A DNA stretch of 64,000 nucleotides from Escherichia coli (GTDB lineage Bacteria; Pseudomonadota; Gammaproteobacteria; Enterobacterales; Enterobacteriaceae): assembly GCF_003790525.1 (NCBI RefSeq), contig NZ_CP033635.1; one strand, given 5' to 3'. Under the pieces are notes generated by a model, which saw only the letters and a list, made by a program, of their open reading frames with translations, did no database searches and was not told the DNA's origin. Shown here in pieces: positions 15,239 through 63,786 of the stretch; the stretch's first letter is position 1; every line of letters starts with the position of its first letter. Made by a program: the position numbers and the translations under genes.

Positions 15239-15325
15239 GCTGAAAAACATAACCCATAAAATGCTAGCTGTACCAGGAACCACCTCCTTAGCCTGTGTAA
15301 TCTCCCTTACACGGGCTTATTTTTT
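15239..15325 (+). ncRNA. cyaR: CyaR (RyeE) Hfq-dependent sRNA
   Basis: GCTGAAAAACATAACCCATAAAATGCTAGCTGTACCAGGAACCACCTCCTTAGCCTGTGTAATCTCCCTTACACGGGCTTATTTTTT matches the CyaR sequence as remembered; ends in a hairpin (GTGTAATCTCCCTTACAC) plus T-run; a -10-like TATCAT lies about 8 bp upstream. Confidence 0.8.
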
Positions 15326-15483
15326 ATGCATAAGCCCTATCCCTGGTCACCGTCTTCCATTGACCACATCGATAGAATCTCCCTTCATAGCACGATGCCT
15401 TTCACGTAACGGCATCGTGCTCGCACAGGTTCCGGCTAAGCACAACCAGAACGCACATATTTGACGCTTACCAAAAAATATTC

Positions 15484-17114: not shown

Positions 17115-17187
17115 ATAAAAGCAAGCTCAGAAGCAGGATTAGCAGACCGGCATCATCCCTGGGATCTTCTGCGCTCACCCTTTTTTG

Positions 17188-17841
17188 TTACGCAGCTACG
17201 GCTAACGCTGCCAGTAATTCATTCATCGATAAATATCTTGCACTCGCCGCATTAAAGCAGGTTTGTTGGGCATCTTCTGATACCACAATGGTGTTTATTC
17301 CTGCCGCCTGTGCTGCCTGAAAACCACTCACGCTGTCCTCTATAACCAAACAATCTGCAGCAGACAGTTGCAATTCTCGCAGTGCAGAAAGATAAACTGC
17401 CGGATGGGGTTTCCCATGCTTTTCGTCATCAGCACTACAAATCACCGAAAAATAATGCTGAATATTGAGTTTTGTCAGTACAGCATCGATCACCTGGTAA
17501 GATGAAGAGGTTGCCAGCGCCAGTTGATAGCCACTCCGGCGCAAAAAAAATAACACGTCCTGAACGCCTGGCATCGCTTCGCCCGTCCCGGCAATCAACG
17601 TAGTGATCAGGCGGCGAATCTCACTTTCCAACAGTGCGGGTTCAATGTGTAAATGACAATATTCACACCAGGTTTGGGCAATCTCATCCAGCCTTTTACC
17701 TTTAGTCAGTCTTATACACTCTTCGTCACTGACACATGCGCCCCACCTTGCCAGTGCTCCCTTTTGTGCCTCACGCCATAACCCTTCCGAATCAATGATG
17801 ACGCCGTCCATATCAAAAATGACTGCTTTACAATTAAACAT
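17188..17841 (-). CDS. HAD-superfamily sugar-phosphate phosphatase (217 aa)
   Basis: ORF 17188-17886 trimmed to ATG at 17841 preceded by GAGGAA; HAD motif I FDMDGVIIDS; lies immediately downstream of atlT. Confidence 0.8.
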   Translation of the reverse strand: MFNCKAVIFDMDGVIIDSEGLWREAQKGALARWGACVSDEECIRLTKGKRLDEIAQTWCEYCHLHIEPALLESEIRRLITTLIAGTGEAMPGVQDVLFFLRRSGYQLALATSSSYQVIDAVLTKLNIQHYFSVICSADDEKHGKPHPAVYLSALRELQLSAADCLVIEDSVSGFQAAQAAGINTIVVSEDAQQTCFNAASARYLSMNELLAALAVAA

Positions 17842-17885
17842 TGTTCCTCGCAATAAAGCCTGGCACCACACCAGGCTTGTCGTCA

Positions 17886-19163
17886 TCAGGAAATGGTGGC
17901 GGTCTTCCCTTCACACACTTGCTGATTTGAGAATCCCGGTTGTTCGACGCGAATAAACGGGCAAATAATAAACGCTATCACATACAGGGTGGTGTAAGCG
18001 ATAACCACACCAATAGTACTGAAATAAGGCAGAAGTACCACGGCGATTGCCGGAGCAAGGAAGTTGGACAACCCGGCTGAAAGGTTATAAACCGAAATAG
18101 CTGCTCCTTTATGTTTCGGTTCCAGTGCCGGGAAAACGGCTGCCATCGGTACGAATGCAGCAACAAAGATCCCCAGTGCCACCGCAGGTATCAGCGCCAT
18201 AGCAAAGTTATGACCGAAATGTTGCGGCATGTAGTAGAACGCCAGGCTTGAAAGCGCCATTCCCACGCAACCAAACCAGCGAACAACTTTCATCCAGCCC
18301 ATTTTCTCTGCCAGCACGCCCCAGAATACGTTAGAGAAGATGGTGGTAAAGAAGAAGACTGCCCAGACCTGCAACCACTCAGAGGTGGTAAAGCCCAGCT
18401 CATCAACAAACATCATCGGCATAATTACGGCGAATCCGAATAAAGATAAGGTGTTGATAATGCGAACAATACTGGAAAGCAAAATATTGCGGTTGGTATA
18501 AAGCAAAGTCACCGCACGGCCCAGTTCGCTAAACTTCTCTTTTGTGGTTAGGTTTTGCATATGGCGTGGTGTTTCTACTTTGCGCATAGAAATTAACGCA
18601 ACAGCGCCACCAACCCCACAGAAGGCCAGCGCCAGCCATAATGTTCCCATTTCGCCAATAAGCGGAATGGTAAAACTGGGGATGTAGCTGCCGAATACGC
18701 CGATACCAATAGAGTAAACTGCCCAGAACCAGCCCAGAGCAGCACTGGTGCTGTCACTGCGTACGTTATGGACAATCGCCACAATAAAGGCGTAGAGGAA
18801 CAGCGGATAGGCTAGGCCACGAATACCATAAAACAGCAGGATTAACCCATAGTTCGCCTGCCCCAGACCAAAGACCAGAAACAGCACGTGAAATACGCAC
18901 CACAGCACAAAGCCGATAAACATGGTTTTTTGTGGCGTAATAATTTCGGCAACTACGCCGGAAACCCAGGCGGAAAGCGCTGCCGCCAGGCCATAGAGCG
19001 TAAAGGCAAAGGAGGCTTCTGCAGGCGTGAAACCCAGTGCTTTAATGTAATGCGACAGGAATGCCAGTTCAAAACCGTCTCCGGTCATAAAGATGGCAAT
19101 GGCAATATATCCCCACACCAGATTTAAGGGTAATCCCAGCCATTGTTTATTTGTTAACGACAT
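17886..19163 (-). CDS. atlT: MFS pentitol transporter, D-arabitol operon (425 aa)
   Basis: ORF trimmed to MSLTNKQWLGL...; about 85% identical by eye to the second MFS protein at 26892-28166. Confidence 0.85.
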   Translation of the reverse strand: MSLTNKQWLGLPLNLVWGYIAIAIFMTGDGFELAFLSHYIKALGFTPAEASFAFTLYGLAAALSAWVSGVVAEIITPQKTMFIGFVLWCVFHVLFLVFGLGQANYGLILLFYGIRGLAYPLFLYAFIVAIVHNVRSDSTSAALGWFWAVYSIGIGVFGSYIPSFTIPLIGEMGTLWLALAFCGVGGAVALISMRKVETPRHMQNLTTKEKFSELGRAVTLLYTNRNILLSSIVRIINTLSLFGFAVIMPMMFVDELGFTTSEWLQVWAVFFFTTIFSNVFWGVLAEKMGWMKVVRWFGCVGMALSSLAFYYMPQHFGHNFAMALIPAVALGIFVAAFVPMAAVFPALEPKHKGAAISVYNLSAGLSNFLAPAIAVVLLPYFSTIGVVIAYTTLYVIAFIICPFIRVEQPGFSNQQVCEGKTATIS

Positions 19164-19231
19164 AGTGACCTCGTTTGTAGGATACAAAACGCCGCTCCGG
19201 TGCAAACACCGGAGGGCATTTGTGACAGATG

Positions 19232-20695
19232 TTATTGATTGCGATAGTTCAGGTCGTTGTGATACAGCGCAGTAAACTGCTGATATCGTTGCATCAGCGC
19301 ATTATGACGTTCAGGATCGCTGCGCCAGGTTTTGAAGATTTCAGGTTTTTCACACACTGCCGCCAGTGGTTTTCCCGCAGCAAGACAGGCCAGACGCGCG
19401 GCTCCCAGCGCCCCACCCGTTTCACCGCCTTTATGCGTCACCACTGGCATATCGAGAATATCGGCCAGTAACTGCGCCCAGAATGGACTTCTCGCCCCCC
19501 CACCTACCAGCGAGCATTGCTCAATTGCCGTACCGCTTTCTTGCAGGACTCGCAGCCCATCGGCAATACCAAAGCTGACGCCTTCCAGCACTGCATATCC
19601 CATTAGCGCACGCTGACTGGAGTGTGTCAGCGCCCAGAACAATCCCCGGGCATGAGGATCGTTATGTGGCGTACGTTCACCAGAAAGATACGGGAGGAAC
19701 ATCGGTGCACTGGCTTTGTCTGCATCAGAAAGTTGGGCAATCTCTTCCAGTAACTCTGTTTCCGTTACCCCCACCAGACGGCAGAACCATTGCAGACAAC
19801 TGGCGGCACTGAGCATTACACTCATCTGGTGCCATAAATTCGGTAGTACGTGACAGAAAGCATGGACTGCTGATTGCGGCGCAGGACGATAGGCATCAGT
19901 CACTACAAACAACACCCCGGAAGTTCCCAAAGAAATAAACGCATCTCCGGGAGAAACGGCCCCCACACCAATTGCGCTCACGGCGTTATCGCCACCGCCA
20001 CCAGCAACTACAACCGAAGATGTCAGCCCCCAACGGCTGGCAACTTCAGGGGAAAGAGTGGCAGAAACGTCACAACCTTCCACCAGTTCCGGCATATTCG
20101 CCCGTGTCAGGCCACATTTTTCCAGCAACGAATCTGACCAGTCGCGTTTTTCCACGTCGAGCCACAACGTGCCAGCAGAATCCGACATATCGGAAATCTT
20201 TTGGCCGGTCATTTTGAAACGCAAATAGTCTTTCGGCAGTAAAACGGTGGAAATGCGCGCAAAGTGCTGCGGCTCATGGCGCCGTACCCATAGCAATTTG
20301 GGGGCGGTAAATCCAGGCATCGCCAGGTTTCCCGCTACCTGATGCAACTCTGGTGCGATCTCTTCCAGCTCCGCACACTCCTGCGCACTGCGGGTGTCGT
20401 TCCATAAAATCGCCGGACGAATCGCCTCTCCTTTTTCATCCAACAGGACGGCACCATGCATTTGACCAGAAAGGCCAATGGCTTTGATCGCCTGCCAGTG
20501 GTGACCGCATTTTTCCCGCAGGGTCGACATTAAATATTCCGTCGCTTCCCACCAGGCTTGCGGCGATTGTTCTGACCAGTGTGGATGGGGCCGCTGAATG
20601 GTCAGCGGCGCACTATGGGTGGCAACAATTTCATTGTTTTCATCAATGACCAGCGCCTTAACTTCCGATGTGCCCAGATCGATACCCAGATACAT
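19232..20695 (-). CDS. atlK: FGGY-family kinase, xylulokinase-like (487 aa)
   Basis: N-terminus MYLGIDLGTSEVKA typical of FGGY sugar kinases; AGGAGG before the ATG. Confidence 0.85.
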   Translation of the reverse strand: MYLGIDLGTSEVKALVIDENNEIVATHSAPLTIQRPHPHWSEQSPQAWWEATEYLMSTLREKCGHHWQAIKAIGLSGQMHGAVLLDEKGEAIRPAILWNDTRSAQECAELEEIAPELHQVAGNLAMPGFTAPKLLWVRRHEPQHFARISTVLLPKDYLRFKMTGQKISDMSDSAGTLWLDVEKRDWSDSLLEKCGLTRANMPELVEGCDVSATLSPEVASRWGLTSSVVVAGGGGDNAVSAIGVGAVSPGDAFISLGTSGVLFVVTDAYRPAPQSAVHAFCHVLPNLWHQMSVMLSAASCLQWFCRLVGVTETELLEEIAQLSDADKASAPMFLPYLSGERTPHNDPHARGLFWALTHSSQRALMGYAVLEGVSFGIADGLRVLQESGTAIEQCSLVGGGARSPFWAQLLADILDMPVVTHKGGETGGALGAARLACLAAGKPLAAVCEKPEIFKTWRSDPERHNALMQRYQQFTALYHNDLNYRNQ

Positions 20696-20708
20696 AACCG
20701 CCTCCTGG

Positions 20709-22076
20709 TTAGTTAATTAACGCGTAGACGTCAGCGATTTTTTCGCGCAACAACGCGGCAAAATCTTCACGTTCGGTTAAATCGCCAAACAGCGCTTTAT
20801 CACTGGCATAAACAGCGACGGGATCGGCAGACTGGAACATTGCATGGACAGCTGGTGCATCAAGGATGCCATCCTGATATTCATAGGGCAGTTTGCCGTG
20901 ATGCCATTGCTCCATGAATACGTAAAACAGTGCAGGTAACATGGCGGTGGCATTCGGGCGAACGCCTCGCTGGTAGCACTCTCGCAGTGTGGGGGCAATC
21001 ATCGCCGGAATTTTCGAGAAACCATCCGCAGCGACGCGTTGGTTGGTGTCCTGAATATGTGGATTGGTAAAACGCTTGAGTACAACATCACGGTAGGTTG
21101 GCAAATCGATACCGTTATCGCCCAAGCAAGGAATGACATCTTCCGTCACGTAGCGGTCGGCAATCTGATAGATAAAATCGGTCATTGTGCTTTCGTGGAT
21201 ATATTTTTGACCGATTAACGTACCTGCCCAGGCGATGCAACTGTGTGAAGAGTTAAGAATGCGAATCTTCGCCTCTTCATAGGGGATTACCGACGCCACC
21301 AGTTCGACACCGACCTTCTCCAGTGCCGGACGGACATCACGGAAATTATCTTCCACGACCCACTGGATAAAGGTTTCGCCCATTACCGGCGCTTTATCGG
21401 CAATACCCGTTTGAGCCTTGATCCGTGCCGGAAGTTCTGCTGCCGGACGAGGCGTAATGCGGTCAACCATGGTATTCGGGCAAGTGGTATTTGTACTCAG
21501 CCAGTCGATGACATCCTGTTTGCCAGTTAGCTGGAGAAACTCAACCAGGCCATCATGGAAACGTTCACCATTATGGCGCACGTTATCGCAATTCAGCAGG
21601 GTTAGTGGTCCGGCGTTATTTGCCATACGTGCTTCGAGGATACGGGTAATAACACCGTAAATTGTTTTGCATCCCCCTTTAAGATCTGCCGCTAAATCAG
21701 GATTGTTAACTTCCAGTTTGTGACTGGTATTCAGGTAGTACCCGCCTTCGGTGACGGTGAAAGCAATCACTTTTGTCTTCGGATCTGCCCCTTCAGCAAT
21801 CAGCGGTTGTAAATCTGCCTGCCACGGTATCAACTTCTGAATTGAGGTGATCTCTTCATATTCGCTTACCCCTTCCGGGCTGACGGTTTCCAGCACATAG
21901 CGACCTTTCTGTGCACTGAGTGCCTGTACGACATGTTCAGCATCATTACGAATATTGCCCGCAGCAATGCTCCAGCGTTTATCGCCCATCACCTGCAAAC
22001 GGTGTAGATACCACGCCTGATGTGCGCGATGAAAAGAACCTAACCCGATGTGCAGCCATGTAAATTGTTCGTTCAT
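20709..22076 (-). CDS. atlD: Mannitol-dehydrogenase-family polyol dehydrogenase, D-arabitol 4-dehydrogenase-like (455 aa)
   Basis: ORF 20709-22121 trimmed to [21 protein letters not shown] (Rossmann N-terminus); the start could instead be 15 codons upstream. Confidence 0.8.
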
Positions 22077-22288
22077 TGTTTCGTTCTCCATTGACGTTAT
22101 GGCTGAACTGTAATCGAACATTTGAGTTAATTAAGAGCGTTAGATCACAAAAGAACAATTGACCAAAAAAATTACAAATGACCAAATCAAAGCAATAAAC
22201 TTGCCTCGCGGTAAAGCTATGGCCAAAATGACGCTAATCAGTTGCGGGATTTTCACGATTCCGCACGCCACTTTTGAGGTAGGGAAAC

Positions 22289-23230
22289 GTGAACAAAGAA
22301 GATGACATCAGGCTCGATCAAAAAGTACGGGCGGCATGGATGTACTACATTGCCGGACTTAATCAGAGTGAAATCGCAAGTCAGTTAGGTACTTCACGGC
22401 CAGTGGTTCAACGCCTGATAGCAGCAGCGAAAGACGAAGGGATTGTGTCGATTGGATTGCATCATCCGGTTGCCAACTGTCTCGATTATGCCCAACTGTT
22501 AAAGGAAAAGTACCAATTAACCGACTGCAATATTATGCCGGTTTACAGTATTGAAAGTACGCTCGACAGCGTGACATTTGGCTGTTATCAACTGATGGCG
22601 CGTTACTTACAGGGTGACAAACCGACCATCGTTGGTATTGGTTCTGGCTTAACGTTGAAGAAAACCATTAAACGTATCGATTTTGATAGTCAGAATACCC
22701 GCTGTGTGGCGCTGATTAGCGCCATGAATGAACACGGGCAATGTAACTATTACGACGACGTACCGCTGCTTTTGGCGAGAAAAATTCAGGGAAAATATTA
22801 CCAGTGGCCAGCTCCACGCTATGCTCAGTCCCGCGAAGAGTACCAAATGTGGTCAACCAATCGATTGTTCCGCAACGTCTCTACCGTAGCGCGTGACTCT
22901 GATGTTATTTTCGTGGGTATTGGTGCTTTAGGTCGTCAAAGCCCTATTTTCAAAGATGGCTTTATTGATGAGCAGCAACTGGAAGAGTTAACAGCACGCG
23001 GAGGCGTTGGTGAAATCCTCGGACGCTTTATTGATGCTGAAGGCAATGTTGTGGAAAGCCAGATCAACCAGATGATCACCAGCCATGATATCCGCGAAAG
23101 CAACTGCCCACGTATCGCAGCTGCCTGTGGTGAGGATAAACGTCCGGCGATCCTCGCAGCATTAAAAGGTGGGTGGATCAACGGTCTGGTCACCGATGAA
23201 CACACCGCACGCTGGTTGCTGACACGTTAA
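22289..23230 (+). CDS. atlR: SorC/DeoR-type sugar-binding transcriptional regulator (313 aa)
   Basis: N-terminal HTH (LNQSEIASQLGTSRPVVQRL) plus sugar-binding domain; divergent from atlDKT. Symbol assigned by adjacency only. Confidence 0.75.
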   Translation: MNKEDDIRLDQKVRAAWMYYIAGLNQSEIASQLGTSRPVVQRLIAAAKDEGIVSIGLHHPVANCLDYAQLLKEKYQLTDCNIMPVYSIESTLDSVTFGCYQLMARYLQGDKPTIVGIGSGLTLKKTIKRIDFDSQNTRCVALISAMNEHGQCNYYDDVPLLLARKIQGKYYQWPAPRYAQSREEYQMWSTNRLFRNVSTVARDSDVIFVGIGALGRQSPIFKDGFIDEQQLEELTARGGVGEILGRFIDAEGNVVESQINQMITSHDIRESNCPRIAAACGEDKRPAILAALKGGWINGLVTDEHTARWLLTR

Positions 23231-23232
23231 TC

Positions 23233-24264
23233 TCAGCTGACAACATTCAGGCTCGGAATGAGTTGTGGCGGTATCTCAATGCGACGCAGGGTGGTATCGC
23301 CAGAATCCACAATTTCAAACACTTTTTCGAGCATGGCGGGTACATCCTGACGAACCATATCGATATCGTGCCCGAGCAGAGAAACAAAAGGATCCCAGTC
23401 AAAACACCCCATTGGCGGTTGATTGGCTCCCGTCTGCCCGGTTTGCGCCAGCCAGCGAACCACCCCTTCAAGAGAGATTGTCGAGTTGACGAATAACCCG
23501 TGAAGCGATACTGCAGAGCTTTGGAAGACCTCTTTCAGTAATCCCTCTACGCGAGCAGAAGAGTAGCCGGTAACCAGTTTATGTTCATCCGGTACGGTTA
23601 TCCCCAAAGCCTGATGGGCATCGACAAAACCACATAAACGTTCAGCAGTATTGTTATCGCTTATACGTCCACCGACAAAAGTCAAAGGTGCCAGCTTGCC
23701 ATAGCGTTTCTGGCTGTTGGCTAAAATTCTTTCCGTCAATAATTTCGCCCCCATATAGTTATCAGAAATGATCGACGGCGCCAGTGTTCCCGGCAGATCC
23801 AGATTCAGTGTCGGTACGCCCGCTTGCTGGCACATTTGGGCTATTTTATCCGGTTGAGTCGCTCCGGTAGCAATGACCCAATCCACCTGCCAGGAGAGCA
23901 TGGCGCGAGCAGCCTCAATTTCCAGTTCTGGCTGTCGCCGCGTACAGGTGATGATTGGCAGTAATCCTCTGGCACGCGCCATCTCTTCAAATTTTTCGGC
24001 AATCGATCCAAAGTATCGGTTGTCATATTTCGGCACAATCATGCCAATAACGTTGGATTTTTTACTGCGCAGTAAACTTGCCTGCCGATTAATGGCATAT
24101 CCCTGCTCTTCCGCAATACGGGTGACCTTCTCAGCCAGCTTTGCGCTGATGCGTCGCTTTTTCCAGTTGCCATTCAAAATAGCGCTTACCGCACTGGCAG
24201 AAACGCCGGTTAATTCTGCCAGGTCGTAAATGGTCGTTTTCTTCGTTTTCTCAACGCGTGTCAC
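23233..24264 (-). CDS. rtlR: LacI-family transcriptional repressor (343 aa)
   Basis: LacI-type HTH (TIYDLAELTGVSASAVS) plus periplasmic-binding-like domain; divergent from rtlDKT. Symbol assigned by adjacency only. Confidence 0.75.
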   Translation of the reverse strand: MTRVEKTKKTTIYDLAELTGVSASAVSAILNGNWKKRRISAKLAEKVTRIAEEQGYAINRQASLLRSKKSNVIGMIVPKYDNRYFGSIAEKFEEMARARGLLPIITCTRRQPELEIEAARAMLSWQVDWVIATGATQPDKIAQMCQQAGVPTLNLDLPGTLAPSIISDNYMGAKLLTERILANSQKRYGKLAPLTFVGGRISDNNTAERLCGFVDAHQALGITVPDEHKLVTGYSSARVEGLLKEVFQSSAVSLHGLFVNSTISLEGVVRWLAQTGQTGANQPPMGCFDWDPFVSLLGHDIDMVRQDVPAMLEKVFEIVDSGDTTLRRIEIPPQLIPSLNVVS

Positions 24265-24422
24265 AAATTTGCCTCTTCATTTTGAATGTCTCTTGCTGAG
24301 AATTTAAGCAAGTGCTAGATCTGCTTCATCGATTGAGCAGTTTGCTTCACACGGCAGCTAAATTCCCGTTCAGTGCGTGCAAGCAAACAGAGACTATAAA
24401 TTCGCCCTGGTAAAAGGATTAT

Positions 24423-25175
24423 ATGATGAATCACTCTGTGCCCTCTATGAATACTCCCCTTAATGGCAAAGTTGCAGCTATCACTGGCGCTGCGTCAGGT
24501 ATTGGCCTGCAATGTGCAAAAACGCTGCTCGATGCAGGAGCAAAGGTAGTATTGATTGACCGGGAAGGCGACAAACTGCACAAGATTGTCGCTGAGTTAG
24601 GCGAAAACGCGTACGCGCTGCAACTCGATCTCTTCAATAATCAGCAAGTCGATAACATGCTGGCGGACATTATCGAACTGGCGGGTGGGCTGGATATTTT
24701 TCATGCCAATGCAGGCGCTTATATTGGCGGCCCAGTGGCTGAAGGTGATCCAGATGTCTGGGATCGTGTGTTAAATCTGAATATAAATGCGGCGTTTCGC
24801 TGTGTCCGTGCAGTCCTGCCGCATATGATTGCGCAGAGGTCGGGCGATATAATTTTTACCAGTTCCATCGCGGGCGTCGTTCCGGTTATCTGGGAACCGA
24901 TCTACACCGCGTCCAAATTTGCCGTTCAGGCATTCGTACACACTACCCGCCGCCAGGTTTCTCAATATGGCGTGCGTGTGGGTGCGGTGCTGCCAGGACC
25001 AGTAGTCACTGCCCTGCTTGATGACTGGCCAAAAGCCAAAATGGAAGAAGCCCTGGCAAATGGTAGCCTGATGCAACCGATTGAAGTGGCGGAATCAGTA
25101 TTGTTTATGGTGACCCGCTCGAAAAATGTCACCGTGCGAGATTTAGTGATCCTGCCTGGCAGTGTCGATCTGTAA
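24423..25175 (+). CDS. rtlD: Short-chain dehydrogenase/reductase, ribitol 2-dehydrogenase-like (about 249 aa)
   Basis: SDR motifs TGAASGIG and YTASK; the start may be the second ATG at 24426. Confidence 0.85.
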
Positions 25176-25185
25176 GGGCGCAATC

Positions 25186-26790
25186 ATGACAATAACCAAA
25201 ACCGTTATTGGTGTTGATGTGGGATCAGGCAGTGTCCGCGCCGGGATTTTTGATCTCAACGGATCTCTGCTATCCCATGCCACAGAAAAAATCACGACTA
25301 CGCGGCGCAGCGGAAGCCGCGTGGAACAGTCCAGCCAGGAGATCTGGCAGGCGGTCTGTTCATGTATTCGTAATGCGCTCACTCTGGCAGACGTTTGTGC
25401 ACAAAGTGTGGCAGGCATCGGTTTTGATGCCACCTGTTCTCTGGTGGTACTGGATAAAAACGGTGATCCATTGCCTGTCAGCCCGGAAGGAGATGCAAAG
25501 CAAAATATCATTGTGTGGATGGATCACCGCGCCACCGAACAAGCAGAGCGAATCAATGCCACTCACCATCCGGTGCTGAACTACGTCGGTGGTAAAATTT
25601 CGCCTGAAATGGAAACACCGAAAATTCTCTGGCTGAAAGAAAATATGCCAGAGATCTACGAACGTGCCGGACAATTTTTCGATCTGGCCGATTTTCTGAC
25701 CTGGCGGGCTACCGGTGATTTAGCGCGTTCAGTATGCACTGTTACCTGTAAATGGACGTGGCTGGCACATGAAAATCGCTGGGATCCAGATTATTTCCGC
25801 ACCATTGGCCTTGCAGAGTTAGCGGATGAAGATTTTATTCGCATTGGTCATCATATTGTTTCTCCCGGAACACCTTGTGGAAATGGTTTAACAGCACAAG
25901 CCGCGGCAGAGATGGGATTACTCCCCGGCACACCTGTCGCTGTAGGGTTAATTGATGCTCACGCTGGTGGCATCGGTACGGTTGGCGTAGAAGGTGGAGC
26001 GCTGAACAATCTCGCGTATGTTTTCGGCACTTCTTCATGCACCATGGCATCTACCACTTCTCCCTCGTTTGTACCGGGTGTCTGGGGGCCGTATTACAGT
26101 GCGATGGTTCCAGGTCTGTGGTTAGTTGAAGGCGGGCAAAGTGCTGCGGGAGCAGCTATTGACCAGCTACTTGATTTCCATCCGGCTGTTGAAGAAGCTC
26201 GCGAAATGGCACAACGTGTGAATCAGCCCCTCCCCGTCTGGCTTGCTGATCGAATCCTCGAAAAAACGGCGCAACCATCAGATGCTGTCGCCCTGGCGAA
26301 AGGGCTACACGTGGTGCCGGAATTTCTCGGAAATCGCGCCCCCTTCGCAGATCCTCATGCCAGAGCGGTAATTTGTGGCCTGGGTATGGAGCGAGATCTG
26401 GATAATTTACTCGCCTTGTATATCGCTGGATTATGCGGAATTGGTTATGGTCTGCGCCAAATTCTCGACGCTCAAACAGCGCAGGGAGTAGTGAGTAAAA
26501 ATATCGTTATTAGCGGCGGTGCCGGGCAGCATCCACTGGTACGACAAATTCTGGCAGATACCTGCGGTATTCCGGTCATTACCACGCAATGCTGCGAACC
26601 GGTTTTATTAGGCTCGGCCATTCTTGGTGCTGTCGCCGGAAATATTGCACCTTCTGTTGGCGAAGCGATGCAACAATTCACCCATGTGGATAAATATTAT
26701 TATCCGCAAGAACGCTATCAATCTCTTCATCATCGTCGATATGAGGCCTATAAGCAGTTGCAGCATACTGCAAAATTACTCAGAGACTAA
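25186..26790 (+). CDS. rtlK: FGGY-family kinase, D-ribulokinase-like (534 aa)
   Basis: ORF 25162-26790 trimmed to ATG at 25186 (MTITKTVIGVDVGSGSVRAG...), 10 bp after the rtlD stop. Confidence 0.85.
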   Translation: MTITKTVIGVDVGSGSVRAGIFDLNGSLLSHATEKITTTRRSGSRVEQSSQEIWQAVCSCIRNALTLADVCAQSVAGIGFDATCSLVVLDKNGDPLPVSPEGDAKQNIIVWMDHRATEQAERINATHHPVLNYVGGKISPEMETPKILWLKENMPEIYERAGQFFDLADFLTWRATGDLARSVCTVTCKWTWLAHENRWDPDYFRTIGLAELADEDFIRIGHHIVSPGTPCGNGLTAQAAAEMGLLPGTPVAVGLIDAHAGGIGTVGVEGGALNNLAYVFGTSSCTMASTTSPSFVPGVWGPYYSAMVPGLWLVEGGQSAAGAAIDQLLDFHPAVEEAREMAQRVNQPLPVWLADRILEKTAQPSDAVALAKGLHVVPEFLGNRAPFADPHARAVICGLGMERDLDNLLALYIAGLCGIGYGLRQILDAQTAQGVVSKNIVISGGAGQHPLVRQILADTCGIPVITTQCCEPVLLGSAILGAVAGNIAPSVGEAMQQFTHVDKYYYPQERYQSLHHRRYEAYKQLQHTAKLLRD

Positions 26791-26891
26791 TTAACCAGCC
26801 GCCTGACGCTGTTTTCAGGCAATCACTAATAACGACTCACTCCGGTAATATCCCGGAGTGCATTCATCTGCACCCTAAAAACGAGGTTTAT

Positions 26892-28166
26892 ATGTCCAGA
26901 AATAATAAACAGTGGTTGGGTTTGCCACTGCATCTGATATGGGGATATATCGCCATCGCAGTATTTATGACTGGTGATGGTTTCGAACTCGCATTCTTAT
27001 CGCACTATATTAAATCGTTAGGCTTCACACCTGCGGAAGCCTCTTTTGCCTTTACGCTCTACGGCCTGGCGGCTGCCCTTTCCGCCTGGGTTTCTGGGGT
27101 AGTAGCGGAAATCATCACGCCGCAAAAAACCATGCTGATTGGTTTTGTCCTATGGTGCGTATTCCATGTTCTGTTTCTGGTCTTTGGATTAGGACAGGCA
27201 AACTATGGGTTAATCCTGCTGTTTTACGGGATTCGTGGTTTAGCGTATCCGCTATTTCTCTACTCATTTATCGTCGTTATTATTCATAACGTGCGTAGCG
27301 AAAATTCCAGTTCTGCTCTGGGTTGGTACTGGGCGGTATATTCAGTAGGGATCGGTGTTGCTGGCAGTTATATTCCCAGTTTTACGATACCGATTATGGG
27401 TGAAATGGGAACCTTATGGCTGGCACTGGCGTTCTGCTTTGCTGGCGGTGTCATTGCCATGATCTCCTTGCGTCATGTTAAAACGCCTGGACATATGCAT
27501 AATTTAACTCCCCGTGAGAAGTTTGCAGAATTAAGTCGGGCAGTAACTTTACTTTATACCAACCGCAATATTTTTCTCTCCAGTATTGTGCGCATTATAA
27601 ATACCTTATCGTTATTCGGTTTTGCGGTCATTATGCCAATGATGTTTGTGGATGAACTGGGATTCACCACCTCTGAATGGTTGCAGGTCTGGGCGGCATT
27701 TTTCTTTACCACTATTTTCTCTAATATTTTTTGGGGGATTGTGGCAGAAAAAATGGGCTGGATGCGTGTTATTCGCTGGTTTGGTTGCCTCGGGATGGCA
27801 GCATCAAGTTTAGCGTTTTACTACATGCCGCAATACTTTGGTCACAACTACTGGATGGCAATGATTCCGGCGATTGCTCTGGGAACTTTTGTTGCTGCAT
27901 TTGTGCCGATGGCCGCTGTCTTCCCGGCACTGGAACCAAAACACAAAGGTGCTGCAATCTCGGTTTACAACCTCTCTGCGGGTATGTCTAACTTCCTGGC
28001 TCCGGCAATTGCCGTGGTGTTATTACCGTGGTTTAGCACTATCGGTGTGGTCATTGCCTATACAGCATTGTATCTATTGGCCTTTGTCCTTTGCGCATTC
28101 ATTCGCGTTGAGCAGCCAGGATTCAGTTCTGCGCCAGTGACTGAGAAGGCATTGAATATCTCCTGA
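26892..28166 (+). CDS. rtlT: MFS pentitol transporter, ribitol operon (424 aa)
   Basis: Paralog of atlT (MSRNNKQWLGLPLHLIWGYIAIAVF...). Confidence 0.85.
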   Translation: MSRNNKQWLGLPLHLIWGYIAIAVFMTGDGFELAFLSHYIKSLGFTPAEASFAFTLYGLAAALSAWVSGVVAEIITPQKTMLIGFVLWCVFHVLFLVFGLGQANYGLILLFYGIRGLAYPLFLYSFIVVIIHNVRSENSSSALGWYWAVYSVGIGVAGSYIPSFTIPIMGEMGTLWLALAFCFAGGVIAMISLRHVKTPGHMHNLTPREKFAELSRAVTLLYTNRNIFLSSIVRIINTLSLFGFAVIMPMMFVDELGFTTSEWLQVWAAFFFTTIFSNIFWGIVAEKMGWMRVIRWFGCLGMAASSLAFYYMPQYFGHNYWMAMIPAIALGTFVAAFVPMAAVFPALEPKHKGAAISVYNLSAGMSNFLAPAIAVVLLPWFSTIGVVIAYTALYLLAFVLCAFIRVEQPGFSSAPVTEKALNIS

Positions 28167-28187
28167 AAAACGAAACGCATCAGGCAC

Positions 28188-28215
28188 TCATCCTCTCCCT
28201 CATGGGAGAGGATGA
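28188..28215. terminator. Perfect 12-bp stem / 4-nt loop hairpin between convergent rtlT and fbaB
   Basis: TCATCCTCTCCC-TCAT-GGGAGAGGATGA followed by TTT on the plus strand. Confidence 0.5.
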
Positions 28216-28222
28216 TTTCACA

Positions 28223-29275
28223 TCAGGCAATAGTGACTTTGTTATCGAGATAAACGTCCTGCACGGCGTTAATCAGTTTCACGCCGTCAGCCATCGATTT
28301 CTTAAATGCTTTCCGCCCCAGAATCAGCCCCATTCCGCCTGCGCGTTTGTTGATAACCGCAGTACGCACTGCATCGCTGAGGTCAGTTTCACCGCCCGCA
28401 GCACCGCCGGAGTTTATCAACCCAGCCCGACCCATATAGCAGTTAGCTAACTGATAACGCACCAGATCAATCGGGTTTTCGCTGGTCAATTTGCTGTAAA
28501 CACGATCGTCGGTGTAACCGTAATTAATTGCTTTATAGCCGCCGTTATTTTCCGCCATTTTTTGTTTGACGATATCTGCACCGATGGTTGCCGCCAGATG
28601 GTTTGCCTGACCGGTCAGGTCGGCGGAAACATGGTAATCAACGCCATCTTTCTTAAAGGCGGAGTTACGCAAATAGGCCCACAGCACTGTCACCATACCC
28701 AGCTCGTGCGCACGTTCAAAAGCCGCAGAAATTTCTTCAATCTGGCGACGTGACTCTTCCGAGCCAAAATAGATAGTCGCACCAACCGCAACCGCGCCCA
28801 TGTTGAACGCCTGCTCCACGCTGGCATACAGCGTTTGATCGTAGGTATTCGGGTAACTTAGCGTCTCGTTGTGATTAAGTTTGACGAGGAATGGAATGCG
28901 ATGCGCATAACGCCGCGATACCGACGCCAGCACGCCGTAAGTTGACGCCACACAGTTACAGCCCGCTTCGATCGCCAGTTCAACAATGTTTTTCGGGTCA
29001 AAGTAGAGCGGGTTAGCAGCAAATGAAGCTCCGGCAGAGTGCTCAACGCCCTGGTCAACCGGCAGAATAGAAAGATATCCTGTGCCAGCCAGACGCCCGG
29101 TGTTGTACAACGTCTGCATATTACGTAACACCGCTGGCGGGCGATTATTGTCAATCATTACGCGGTCTACGTAGTCATGTCCGGGGAGATAAAGCTGGTC
29201 AGAAGGAATTGTCATACAACGGTGCTGTAAAAGGTTGTCGGCGTCTTTGCCAAGCAACTGCGCAATATCTGTCAT
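28223..29275 (-). CDS. fbaB: Class I fructose-bisphosphate aldolase FbaB (350 aa)
   Basis: ORF 28223-29347 trimmed to [20 protein letters not shown]..., the FbaB N-terminus as remembered. Confidence 0.9.
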
Positions 29276-38009: not shown

Positions 38010-38035
38010 AAAAATCCCCCTCATCATGAGGGGGA
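38008..38035. terminator. Bidirectional intrinsic terminator between convergent rcnB and yehA
   Basis: A-run, then TCCCCCTCATCATGAGGGGGA; on the minus strand the hairpin is followed by a T-run. Confidence 0.65.
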
Positions 38036-43154: not shown

Positions 43155-43194
43155 CAATAAAAAAGCCGAAATCATTTATATAAATGATTTCGGC
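43155..43194 (-). terminator. Intrinsic terminator downstream of yehE
   Basis: Perfect inverted repeat GCCGAAATCATTT-ATAT-AAATGATTTCGGC (43165-43194) followed on the minus strand by a T-run. Confidence 0.7.
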
Positions 43195-43226
43195 TTTCTA
43201 AATGCAATTAAAATCAGGTTGCCAAA

Positions 43227-63749: not shown

Positions 63750-63786
63750 TTGGCGGTCATGCTCTAAACATGACCGCCAATTTTTT
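63750..63786 (+). terminator. Intrinsic terminator of yehR
   Basis: TTGGCGGTCATG-CTCTAAA-CATGACCGCCAA followed by TTTTTT; overlaps the stop of the convergent yehS ORF. Confidence 0.8.

Follow-up and report, generated by a model that had tools for sequence, protein, structure and literature searches.

A cassette-borne palindromic hairpin between rtlT and fbaB in Escherichia coli as a candidate shared transcript-end structure

Introduction

In the 64,000-nt stretch of Escherichia coli DNA analysed here (the window), a palindromic hairpin stands between two convergent genes, rtlT and fbaB, close to the place where a pentitol cassette gives way to the core genome. A sequence-only reading of this DNA proposed that the hairpin probably acts as a terminator and that its position near the presumed junction of island and core may mark a recombination boundary. 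The locus raises the question of whether the hairpin belongs to the cassette or to the core, what it does for the two transcripts that meet there, and whether it had any part in the arrival of the cassette. Most likely it is a transcript-end structure of an ordinary type, of little weight when taken alone.

The hairpin and its flanking genes

The hairpin occupies positions 28188–28215 and consists of a left arm at 28188–28199 (TCATCCTCTCCC), the loop TCAT at 28200–28203, and a right arm at 28204–28215 (GGGAGAGGATGA); all 12 of the 12 pairs are perfect, and the loop is 4 nt long. The upstream gene, rtlT (26892–28166, + strand; stop codon 28164–28166), closes the ribitol operon and encodes an MFS polyol transporter of the RbtT/DalT/CsbX family, while the gene facing it, fbaB (28223–29275, − strand; stop codon on the complement of 28223–28225), encodes a class I fructose-bisphosphate aldolase and is the first core gene to the right; the annotation of these genes is that of a RefSeq genome identical across the stretch. 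The spacer between the two convergent stop codons measures 56 nt, with the hairpin starting 21 nt past the stop of rtlT and ending 7 nt before that of fbaB. The earlier description of a perfect 12-bp hairpin with a 4-nt loop between the convergent ends of rtlT and fbaB is therefore borne out in every detail by sequence and annotation. An antisense open reading frame at 28202–28450 starts in the loop, lies wholly within the antisense strand of fbaB, and has no ribosome-binding site.

The folding energy, which the sequence-only reading had named as a check, is about −23 kcal/mol on either strand: as RNA, the 28-mer gave −22.9 kcal/mol for the + strand and −22.3 kcal/mol for the − strand (z of about −4.8), and none of 200 dinucleotide shuffles folded as stably. 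Not one of 30 first-order Markov shuffles of the entire window contained a perfect stem of 12 bp or more with a loop of 3–8 nt, and the actual window holds three (28188–28215, 43162–43197, and 63750–63780); chance falls far short of explaining the hairpin. The stem at 43162–43197 is a perfect 16-bp palindrome (AAAGCCGAAATCATTT-ATAT-AAATGATTTCGGCTTT) in the yehD/yehE spacer, is conserved in K-12, and looks like a bidirectional terminator; the one at 63750–63780 is a perfect 12-bp stem (TTGGCGGTCATG..CATGACCGCCAA), and a perfect 9-bp stem (TCCCCCTCA-TCA-TGAGGGGGA) was also observed at 38015–38035. No second copy of the hairpin arm was found in the 64 kb. A search of Rfam at a permissive threshold over 27900–28500 returned only weak matches to eukaryotic families, which carry no meaning, and a literature search in which gene-name queries were drowned by unrelated acronyms found the hairpin nowhere described.

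On either side of the hairpin stands one copy of an 11-nt direct repeat; the two copies differ at one position. The left copy (28176–28186, − strand), TGCCTGATGCG, has the Klebsiella counterpart CCGCATCTGGTAC after rbtT; the right copy (28219–28229, − strand), TGCCTGATGTG, overlaps the stop and the last codons of fbaB, so that it is mostly fbaB coding sequence, which is conserved in K-12. Only one other copy of the 11-mer, allowing up to one mismatch, occurs in the 64 kb, and it lies 29 kb away. The repeat may be a coincidence, a pair of REP remnants, or a target duplication.

Cassette sequence and core sequence

The ribitol/D-arabitol (rtl-atl) cassette (17115–28221) stands in place of gatR-gatY of K-12 and carries genes for a HAD hydrolase, atlT, atlK, atlD, atlR, rtlR, rtlD, rtlK, and rtlT. 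In a comparison with 40 kb of K-12, the left break falls at the stop codon of yegS (17114) and the right break at that of fbaB (28222/28223). Alignment with the K-12 gatY-fbaB junction, which had been suggested as the way to assign the hairpin, places it on the island side, with K-12 homology restarting at 28222, 7 nt to its right. Past the fbaB stop, K-12 has three REP elements (BIME) followed by the gatY upstream region, and no such hairpin was found in the region downstream of its fbaB.

The same division is seen across the species. A 1-kb query spanning the junction matched 5,415 of 5,426 complete E. coli genomes, at full length in only 307; in the others, K-12 among them, the match begins at query positions 520–523, which correspond to window positions 28219–28222. 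The 56-nt spacer used as a query was found in 307 genomes, as a single copy in each, and these are the same 307 cassette carriers; elsewhere in the 5,426 genomes it gave one partial match only (E = 4). An identical hairpin in gat strains, the observation named beforehand as the one that would speak against island membership, is absent from all gat-only genomes among the 5,426. By these comparisons the hairpin is cassette sequence, the final element of the cassette at its right edge, and not core. Within the cassette, atlT and rtlT form an inverted repeat of 1,256 nt with 78% identity (arms at 17931–19186 and 26869–28124); the hairpin lies outside this repeat, since the right arm of the repeat ends 64 nt short of it. 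The atlT/rtlT repeat is presumably that described as ‘1.4-kb inverted repeats’ in the heteroduplex mapping of E. coli C by Link and Reiner (1982). Farther to the left, the ogrK/P2-like prophage remnant that K-12 has between yegQ and yegR is missing from the window strain (window 15308–15333).

The same junction in other Enterobacteriaceae

The gene order around the hairpin recurs outside E. coli. In Klebsiella pneumoniae, rbtR-rbtD-rbtK-rbtT converges on fbaB-thiD-thiM, in Enterobacter hormaechei, rbtR-D-K-T converges on fbaB-yegT-yegU, and in Superficieibacter, dalT-HAD converges on yegS-yegQ; because these convergent junctions recur, the rtl-atl “island” can be said to sit in the orthologous yegS-fbaB slot of other Enterobacteriaceae. 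Transporter homologues from Salmonella salamae, a Logan contig, Klebsiella sp. RIT-PI-d, Buttiauxella, Dryocola, and Enterobacter cloacae were also considered, but these are of the dalT type or lie away from fbaB and added no junctions.

The rbtT/fbaB spacer of Klebsiella pneumoniae is 58 nt long and contains AATCCGGGCGG-tg-CCGCCCGGATT followed by TTTTG, with the fbaB stop 6 nt further on; by its sequence, this hairpin is a canonical terminator for rbtT. The spacer of Enterobacter hormaechei is 54 nt long and contains TTCCTGCCGGG-(10 nt)-CCCGGCAGGAA, which folds at −23 to −25 kcal/mol and is not followed by a U-tail. Both hairpins have 11–12 bp and are unrelated in sequence to that of E. coli. 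Immediately upstream of the hairpin, the E. coli sequence AAACGCATCAGGCAC and the Klebsiella sequence AAACCGCATCTGGTAC can still be aligned; therefore the rtlT/fbaB spacer is homologous, and the hairpin inside this spacer has undergone turnover. With K-12 and the REPs after its fbaB counted in, the occurrence of four unrelated palindromes in four lineages argues that this junction requires a stem-loop whose sequence can vary freely.

In a third E. coli haplotype, represented by 28 genomes with O55:H7 among them, a diverged atl-rtl cluster that lacks rtlT is followed by gatR...gatY and then by fbaB. In O55:H7 RM12579, the atl-rtl cluster is about 86% identical overall, rtlD is a pseudogene, rtlT is missing, and the cluster is joined to a complete gat cluster; the coexistence of atl-rtl and gat has likewise been noted in PMC2806823. 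The convergent rtlK/gatR junction of this haplotype has a canonical bidirectional terminator (AAAAAAACCGGGAC...GTTCCCGGTTTTATT), and because this junction too has a terminator, hairpins at convergent ends appear as the rule at this locus. This haplotype also carries a RelE/ParD toxin–antitoxin pair near yegQ.

Hairpin alleles within E. coli

The main allele of the hairpin is unchanged in 305 genomes and 16 metagenome contigs. The latter came from a metagenome scan anchored on the flanks of the hairpin and aimed at new alleles, which found none, as all 16 contigs carried the main allele. A second allele is found in two genomes (FLI21 and PS2Canimalfeces12) and reads TTATCCTCTCCC-TTAT-GGGAGAGGATAA; it has six substitutions in the 56-nt spacer versus a single one over the 750 nt of rtlT that come before, and the fbaB of these two genomes is 3–4% diverged from that of the window. 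C28189T together with G28214A is a compensatory change of a C-G pair to T-A (U-A in RNA), so that the stem stays perfect, and T28216G adds a C-G pair, which lengthens the stem to 14 bp; with it the T-tail is lost, the stem being followed by TCACAT. These paired changes fit what selection on pairing would predict, with two sequences only to compare. In a covariation control, 262 of 500 shuffles scored as high, a test that cannot discriminate with two alleles only. A perfect palindrome can also persist through template-switch (quasipalindrome) mutation without selection, and the same pattern may arise in that way.

Termination and 3′-end protection

The sequence, fold, and position of the hairpin, its restriction to the cassette, the upkeep of its pairing, and the hairpins in other genera lead us to infer a role in termination and RNA protection. 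We consider it somewhat better than an even chance that, in the main allele, the hairpin serves as a weak intrinsic terminator of the rtl operon and that on both strands it protects 3′ ends and limits read-through. The hairpin would then be the shared 3′-end structure of two convergent transcription units; because the palindrome is perfect, one and the same hairpin is present in both transcripts. Where UUU follows it, on the rtlT strand, it most likely acts as a weak intrinsic terminator, and on both strands it probably blocks 3′-to-5′ exonucleases and read-through into the opposing gene. REPs are known to protect mRNA 3′ ends (REP-mediated mRNA stabilisation), and in gat-type strains such as K-12 the REP/BIME elements after fbaB would do this job.

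The proposal that the hairpin is a terminator holds for the stem and less well for the tail. With 12 bp, a loop of 4 nt, and −22.9 kcal/mol, the stem-loop lies within the ranges used for intrinsic terminators (about 5–14 bp, loop of 3–8 nt, near a stop), and it shares with the intrinsic terminators between convergent genes a strong G+C-containing stem, a 4-nt loop, a place near facing stops, and Ts on the rbtT strand; it also has a canonical counterpart in Klebsiella pneumoniae at the identical position of the rbtT/fbaB junction. The stem sequences of the two are unrelated, however, and the E. coli tail differs in being UUU and then CACAU, with none in the second allele or on the fbaB strand. 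The short T-run (TTT at 28216–28218 on the rtlT strand, then CACAT) is a weak U-tail: the tail UUUCACAU (TTTCACAT) has four U in eight, and a consensus terminator scan, which asks for at least five T in eight, rejected it and left the hairpin uncalled. On the fbaB strand, the stem is followed by GUGCCUGA (GTGCCTGA), which is no U-tail at all. On a decaying T-weight score, Klebsiella reached 3.4, the window 2.5, and the FLI21 allele 1.0, and no tail on the fbaB strand exceeded 0.9.

Relation to REP and BoxC elements

REP elements are imperfect palindromes of about 35 nt, with a GCC(G/T)GATG head and a CTTATC..GGCCTAC tail, and occur in hundreds of copies. Like REP/BIME elements, the hairpin is an extragenic palindrome at the 3′ end of fbaB and would be expected to block 3′ exonucleases; unlike them, it holds no REP consensus, is perfect rather than imperfect, and is present in a single copy. 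It is unrelated to the K-12 REPs at the equivalent place, and only the adjacent 11-mer of the left direct-repeat copy equals or resembles a REP head.

The likeness to BoxC/PIT/TMECO elements is closer. Their intrastrand-triplex consensus is CCCTCNCCC-N3-6-GGGNGAGGG-N3-GGGNGAGGG, with 23 copies in K-12, and TMECO loci are reported to show more rearrangement from strain to strain (Holder et al. 2015, PMC4666352); earlier work cited in PMC4666352 reported that BoxC/PIT elements lack terminator activity, which speaks against the terminator reading. On the − strand, the hairpin reads TCCTCTCCC-ATGA-GGGAGAGGA-TGA, and TMECO no. 2 of K-12 (CCCTCTCCC-TTGA-GGGAGAGGG-TTA; PMC4666352, Table 1) matches it at 21 of the first 25 positions. 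The two have in common a pyrimidine arm (CCTCTCCC), a 4-nt loop, a purine arm (GGGAGAGG), an intergenic position, and a strain-variable locus. The differences lie in the missing third GGGNGAGGG block, in arms that are each one base off, in four extra pairs, and in one copy as against about 23. Against the triplex consensus, the arms TCCTCTCCC and GGGAGAGGA match at 8 of 9 positions each, and the exact pattern has no site in the window; the third block after N3 is absent on both sides, where the flanks TTTCACATC (+) and GTGCCTGAT (−) match at no more than 3 of 9 positions. The hairpin is not dispersed, with one copy per carrier genome and none elsewhere, and the E = 4 match to its spacer is an inverted pair of BoxC/TMECO elements in the hrpB-mrcB spacer of E. 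coli 1008S19.

When 100,044 species genomes were searched for ATCCTCTCCC-N3-6-GGGAGAGGAT, at least 120 loci from many phyla emerged, many of them with a CCCTCACC flank; among the matches listed, 32 of 121 have a BoxC-type third block (CCCTCNCC/GGNGAGGG) and 19 of 121 a clear U-tract. A more than 100-fold enrichment of a special family was considered and then dropped, since in viral-contig controls the pattern had 10 matches, the opposite polarity 10, and a shuffled arm 1, and genomes are so rich in hairpins that any stable 10-bp stem recurs. These counts point to GGGAGAGG-type stems being generally favoured rather than to a specific family. Judged by its sequence, the hairpin is not a member of BoxC, and it may be derived from the hairpin module of BoxC/PIT/TMECO.

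Alternative explanations

One alternative is that the hairpin is a truncated or derived BoxC/PIT/TMECO element, a structural module at the DNA level with no transcriptional role, whose variable locus reflects the rearrangement association reported by Holder et al. for TMECO loci. The 21 of 25 positions shared with TMECO no. 2, the identity of the sole other BLAST match of the spacer in the 5,426 E. coli genomes as a BoxC pair, and the third block in 32 of the 121 listed hairpins that share the stem all speak for it; that match has an E value of only 4, however, neither flank supplies the third block by which the family is defined (3 of 9), both arms have one base that deviates from the consensus, no genome has more than one copy, and the viral contigs gave as many matches for the opposite polarity as for the pattern itself, with one for a shuffled arm. 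We regard this alternative as unlikely, though less so than the others. A further conjecture, which we hold to be quite improbable, is that a truncated BoxC-type palindrome with its 11-nt duplication was left behind when the rtlT/fbaB joint of E. coli arose, BoxC-like hot spots seeding or delimiting the exchange of gat for rtl-atl; if true, it would give a concrete example of the instability association of Holder et al. Slightly more doubtful than the BoxC alternative is a neutral palindrome without function, the footprint of a small insertion or of IS excision, kept perfect by template-switch mutation. Its geometry, held to be just as doubtful, would be a palindromic insert of 32–34 nt between target duplications of 9–11 nt. 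The 11-nt direct repeat that brackets the hairpin (one mismatch; 28176–28186 and 28219–28229) suits such an insertion, and the concerted changes of FLI21 in one arm, in the partner arm, and in the stem extension are what templated correction would produce. Yet the left copy has its counterpart in Klebsiella, where this hairpin is absent, and most of the right copy belongs to the coding sequence of fbaB and is conserved in K-12, so that neither copy need stem from a duplication; the E. coli genomes yielded no related element that has such termini, and the upkeep of a hairpin of similar size at the junction in other genera argues for a requirement.

The reading of the hairpin as the site of recombination or attachment used by the integrating pentitol island starts from its distance of 7 nt from the point where gat-type homology resumes. 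The nearness to the island/core junction claimed by the sequence-only reading is confirmed by this distance; its suggestion that the hairpin marks a recombination boundary is not supported. Klebsiella and Enterobacter share the gene junction with other, unrelated hairpins, and the third E. coli haplotype, in which atl-rtl and gat stand together in the slot, likewise argues against a mechanistic role. The annotation of the cassette lists catabolic, transport, and regulator genes only, with no integrase or recombinase; neither the hairpin arm nor the 11-mer, both confined to the right edge, recurs at the left edge, and the left spacer has no comparable perfect hairpin, so that repeats at both ends are lacking. 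Nor does the insertion split a contiguous core junction, as the gat cassette holds the same slot in K-12. Both breaks coincide with the stop codons of conserved genes, and the non-homology stops there because conserved coding sequence starts there; the hairpin would stand at the cassette edge since cassette-specific DNA meets the conserved coding sequence of fbaB, and not through recombination at that place. Divergence from K-12 is 1–4% within about 13.7–40.7 kb, on both sides of the cassette, and outside this tract the sequences are nearly identical. The diverged tract reaches far past the hairpin, and raised divergence over about 13 kb on either side is expected of homologous import via flanking genes; this points to the import of the tract of about 27 kb, with the cassette in it, by homologous recombination with endpoints in distant core genes. 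An attachment site is accordingly very improbable. We judge it equally improbable that a dimeric DNA-binding protein, for instance a regulator of fbaB or rtl, binds here: the perfect dyad symmetry would suit one, but both genes have the hairpin at their 3′ ends, well away from their promoters, arms of 12 bp around a 4-nt centre are atypical of operators, and unrelated sequences hold this place in other genera. The shared transcript-end structure is the reading that we prefer.

Implications

For the reading of cassette borders, the locus shows that the edge of non-homology at a stop codon is not to be taken as a recombination site; the cassette would have been exchanged between E. coli lineages via homologous recombination in the flanking core genes. 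At one junction, four unrelated 3′-end structures are met, namely a BoxC-like hairpin, a canonical terminator, a REP-like hairpin, and a BIME, which would amount to a turnover of 3′ ends.
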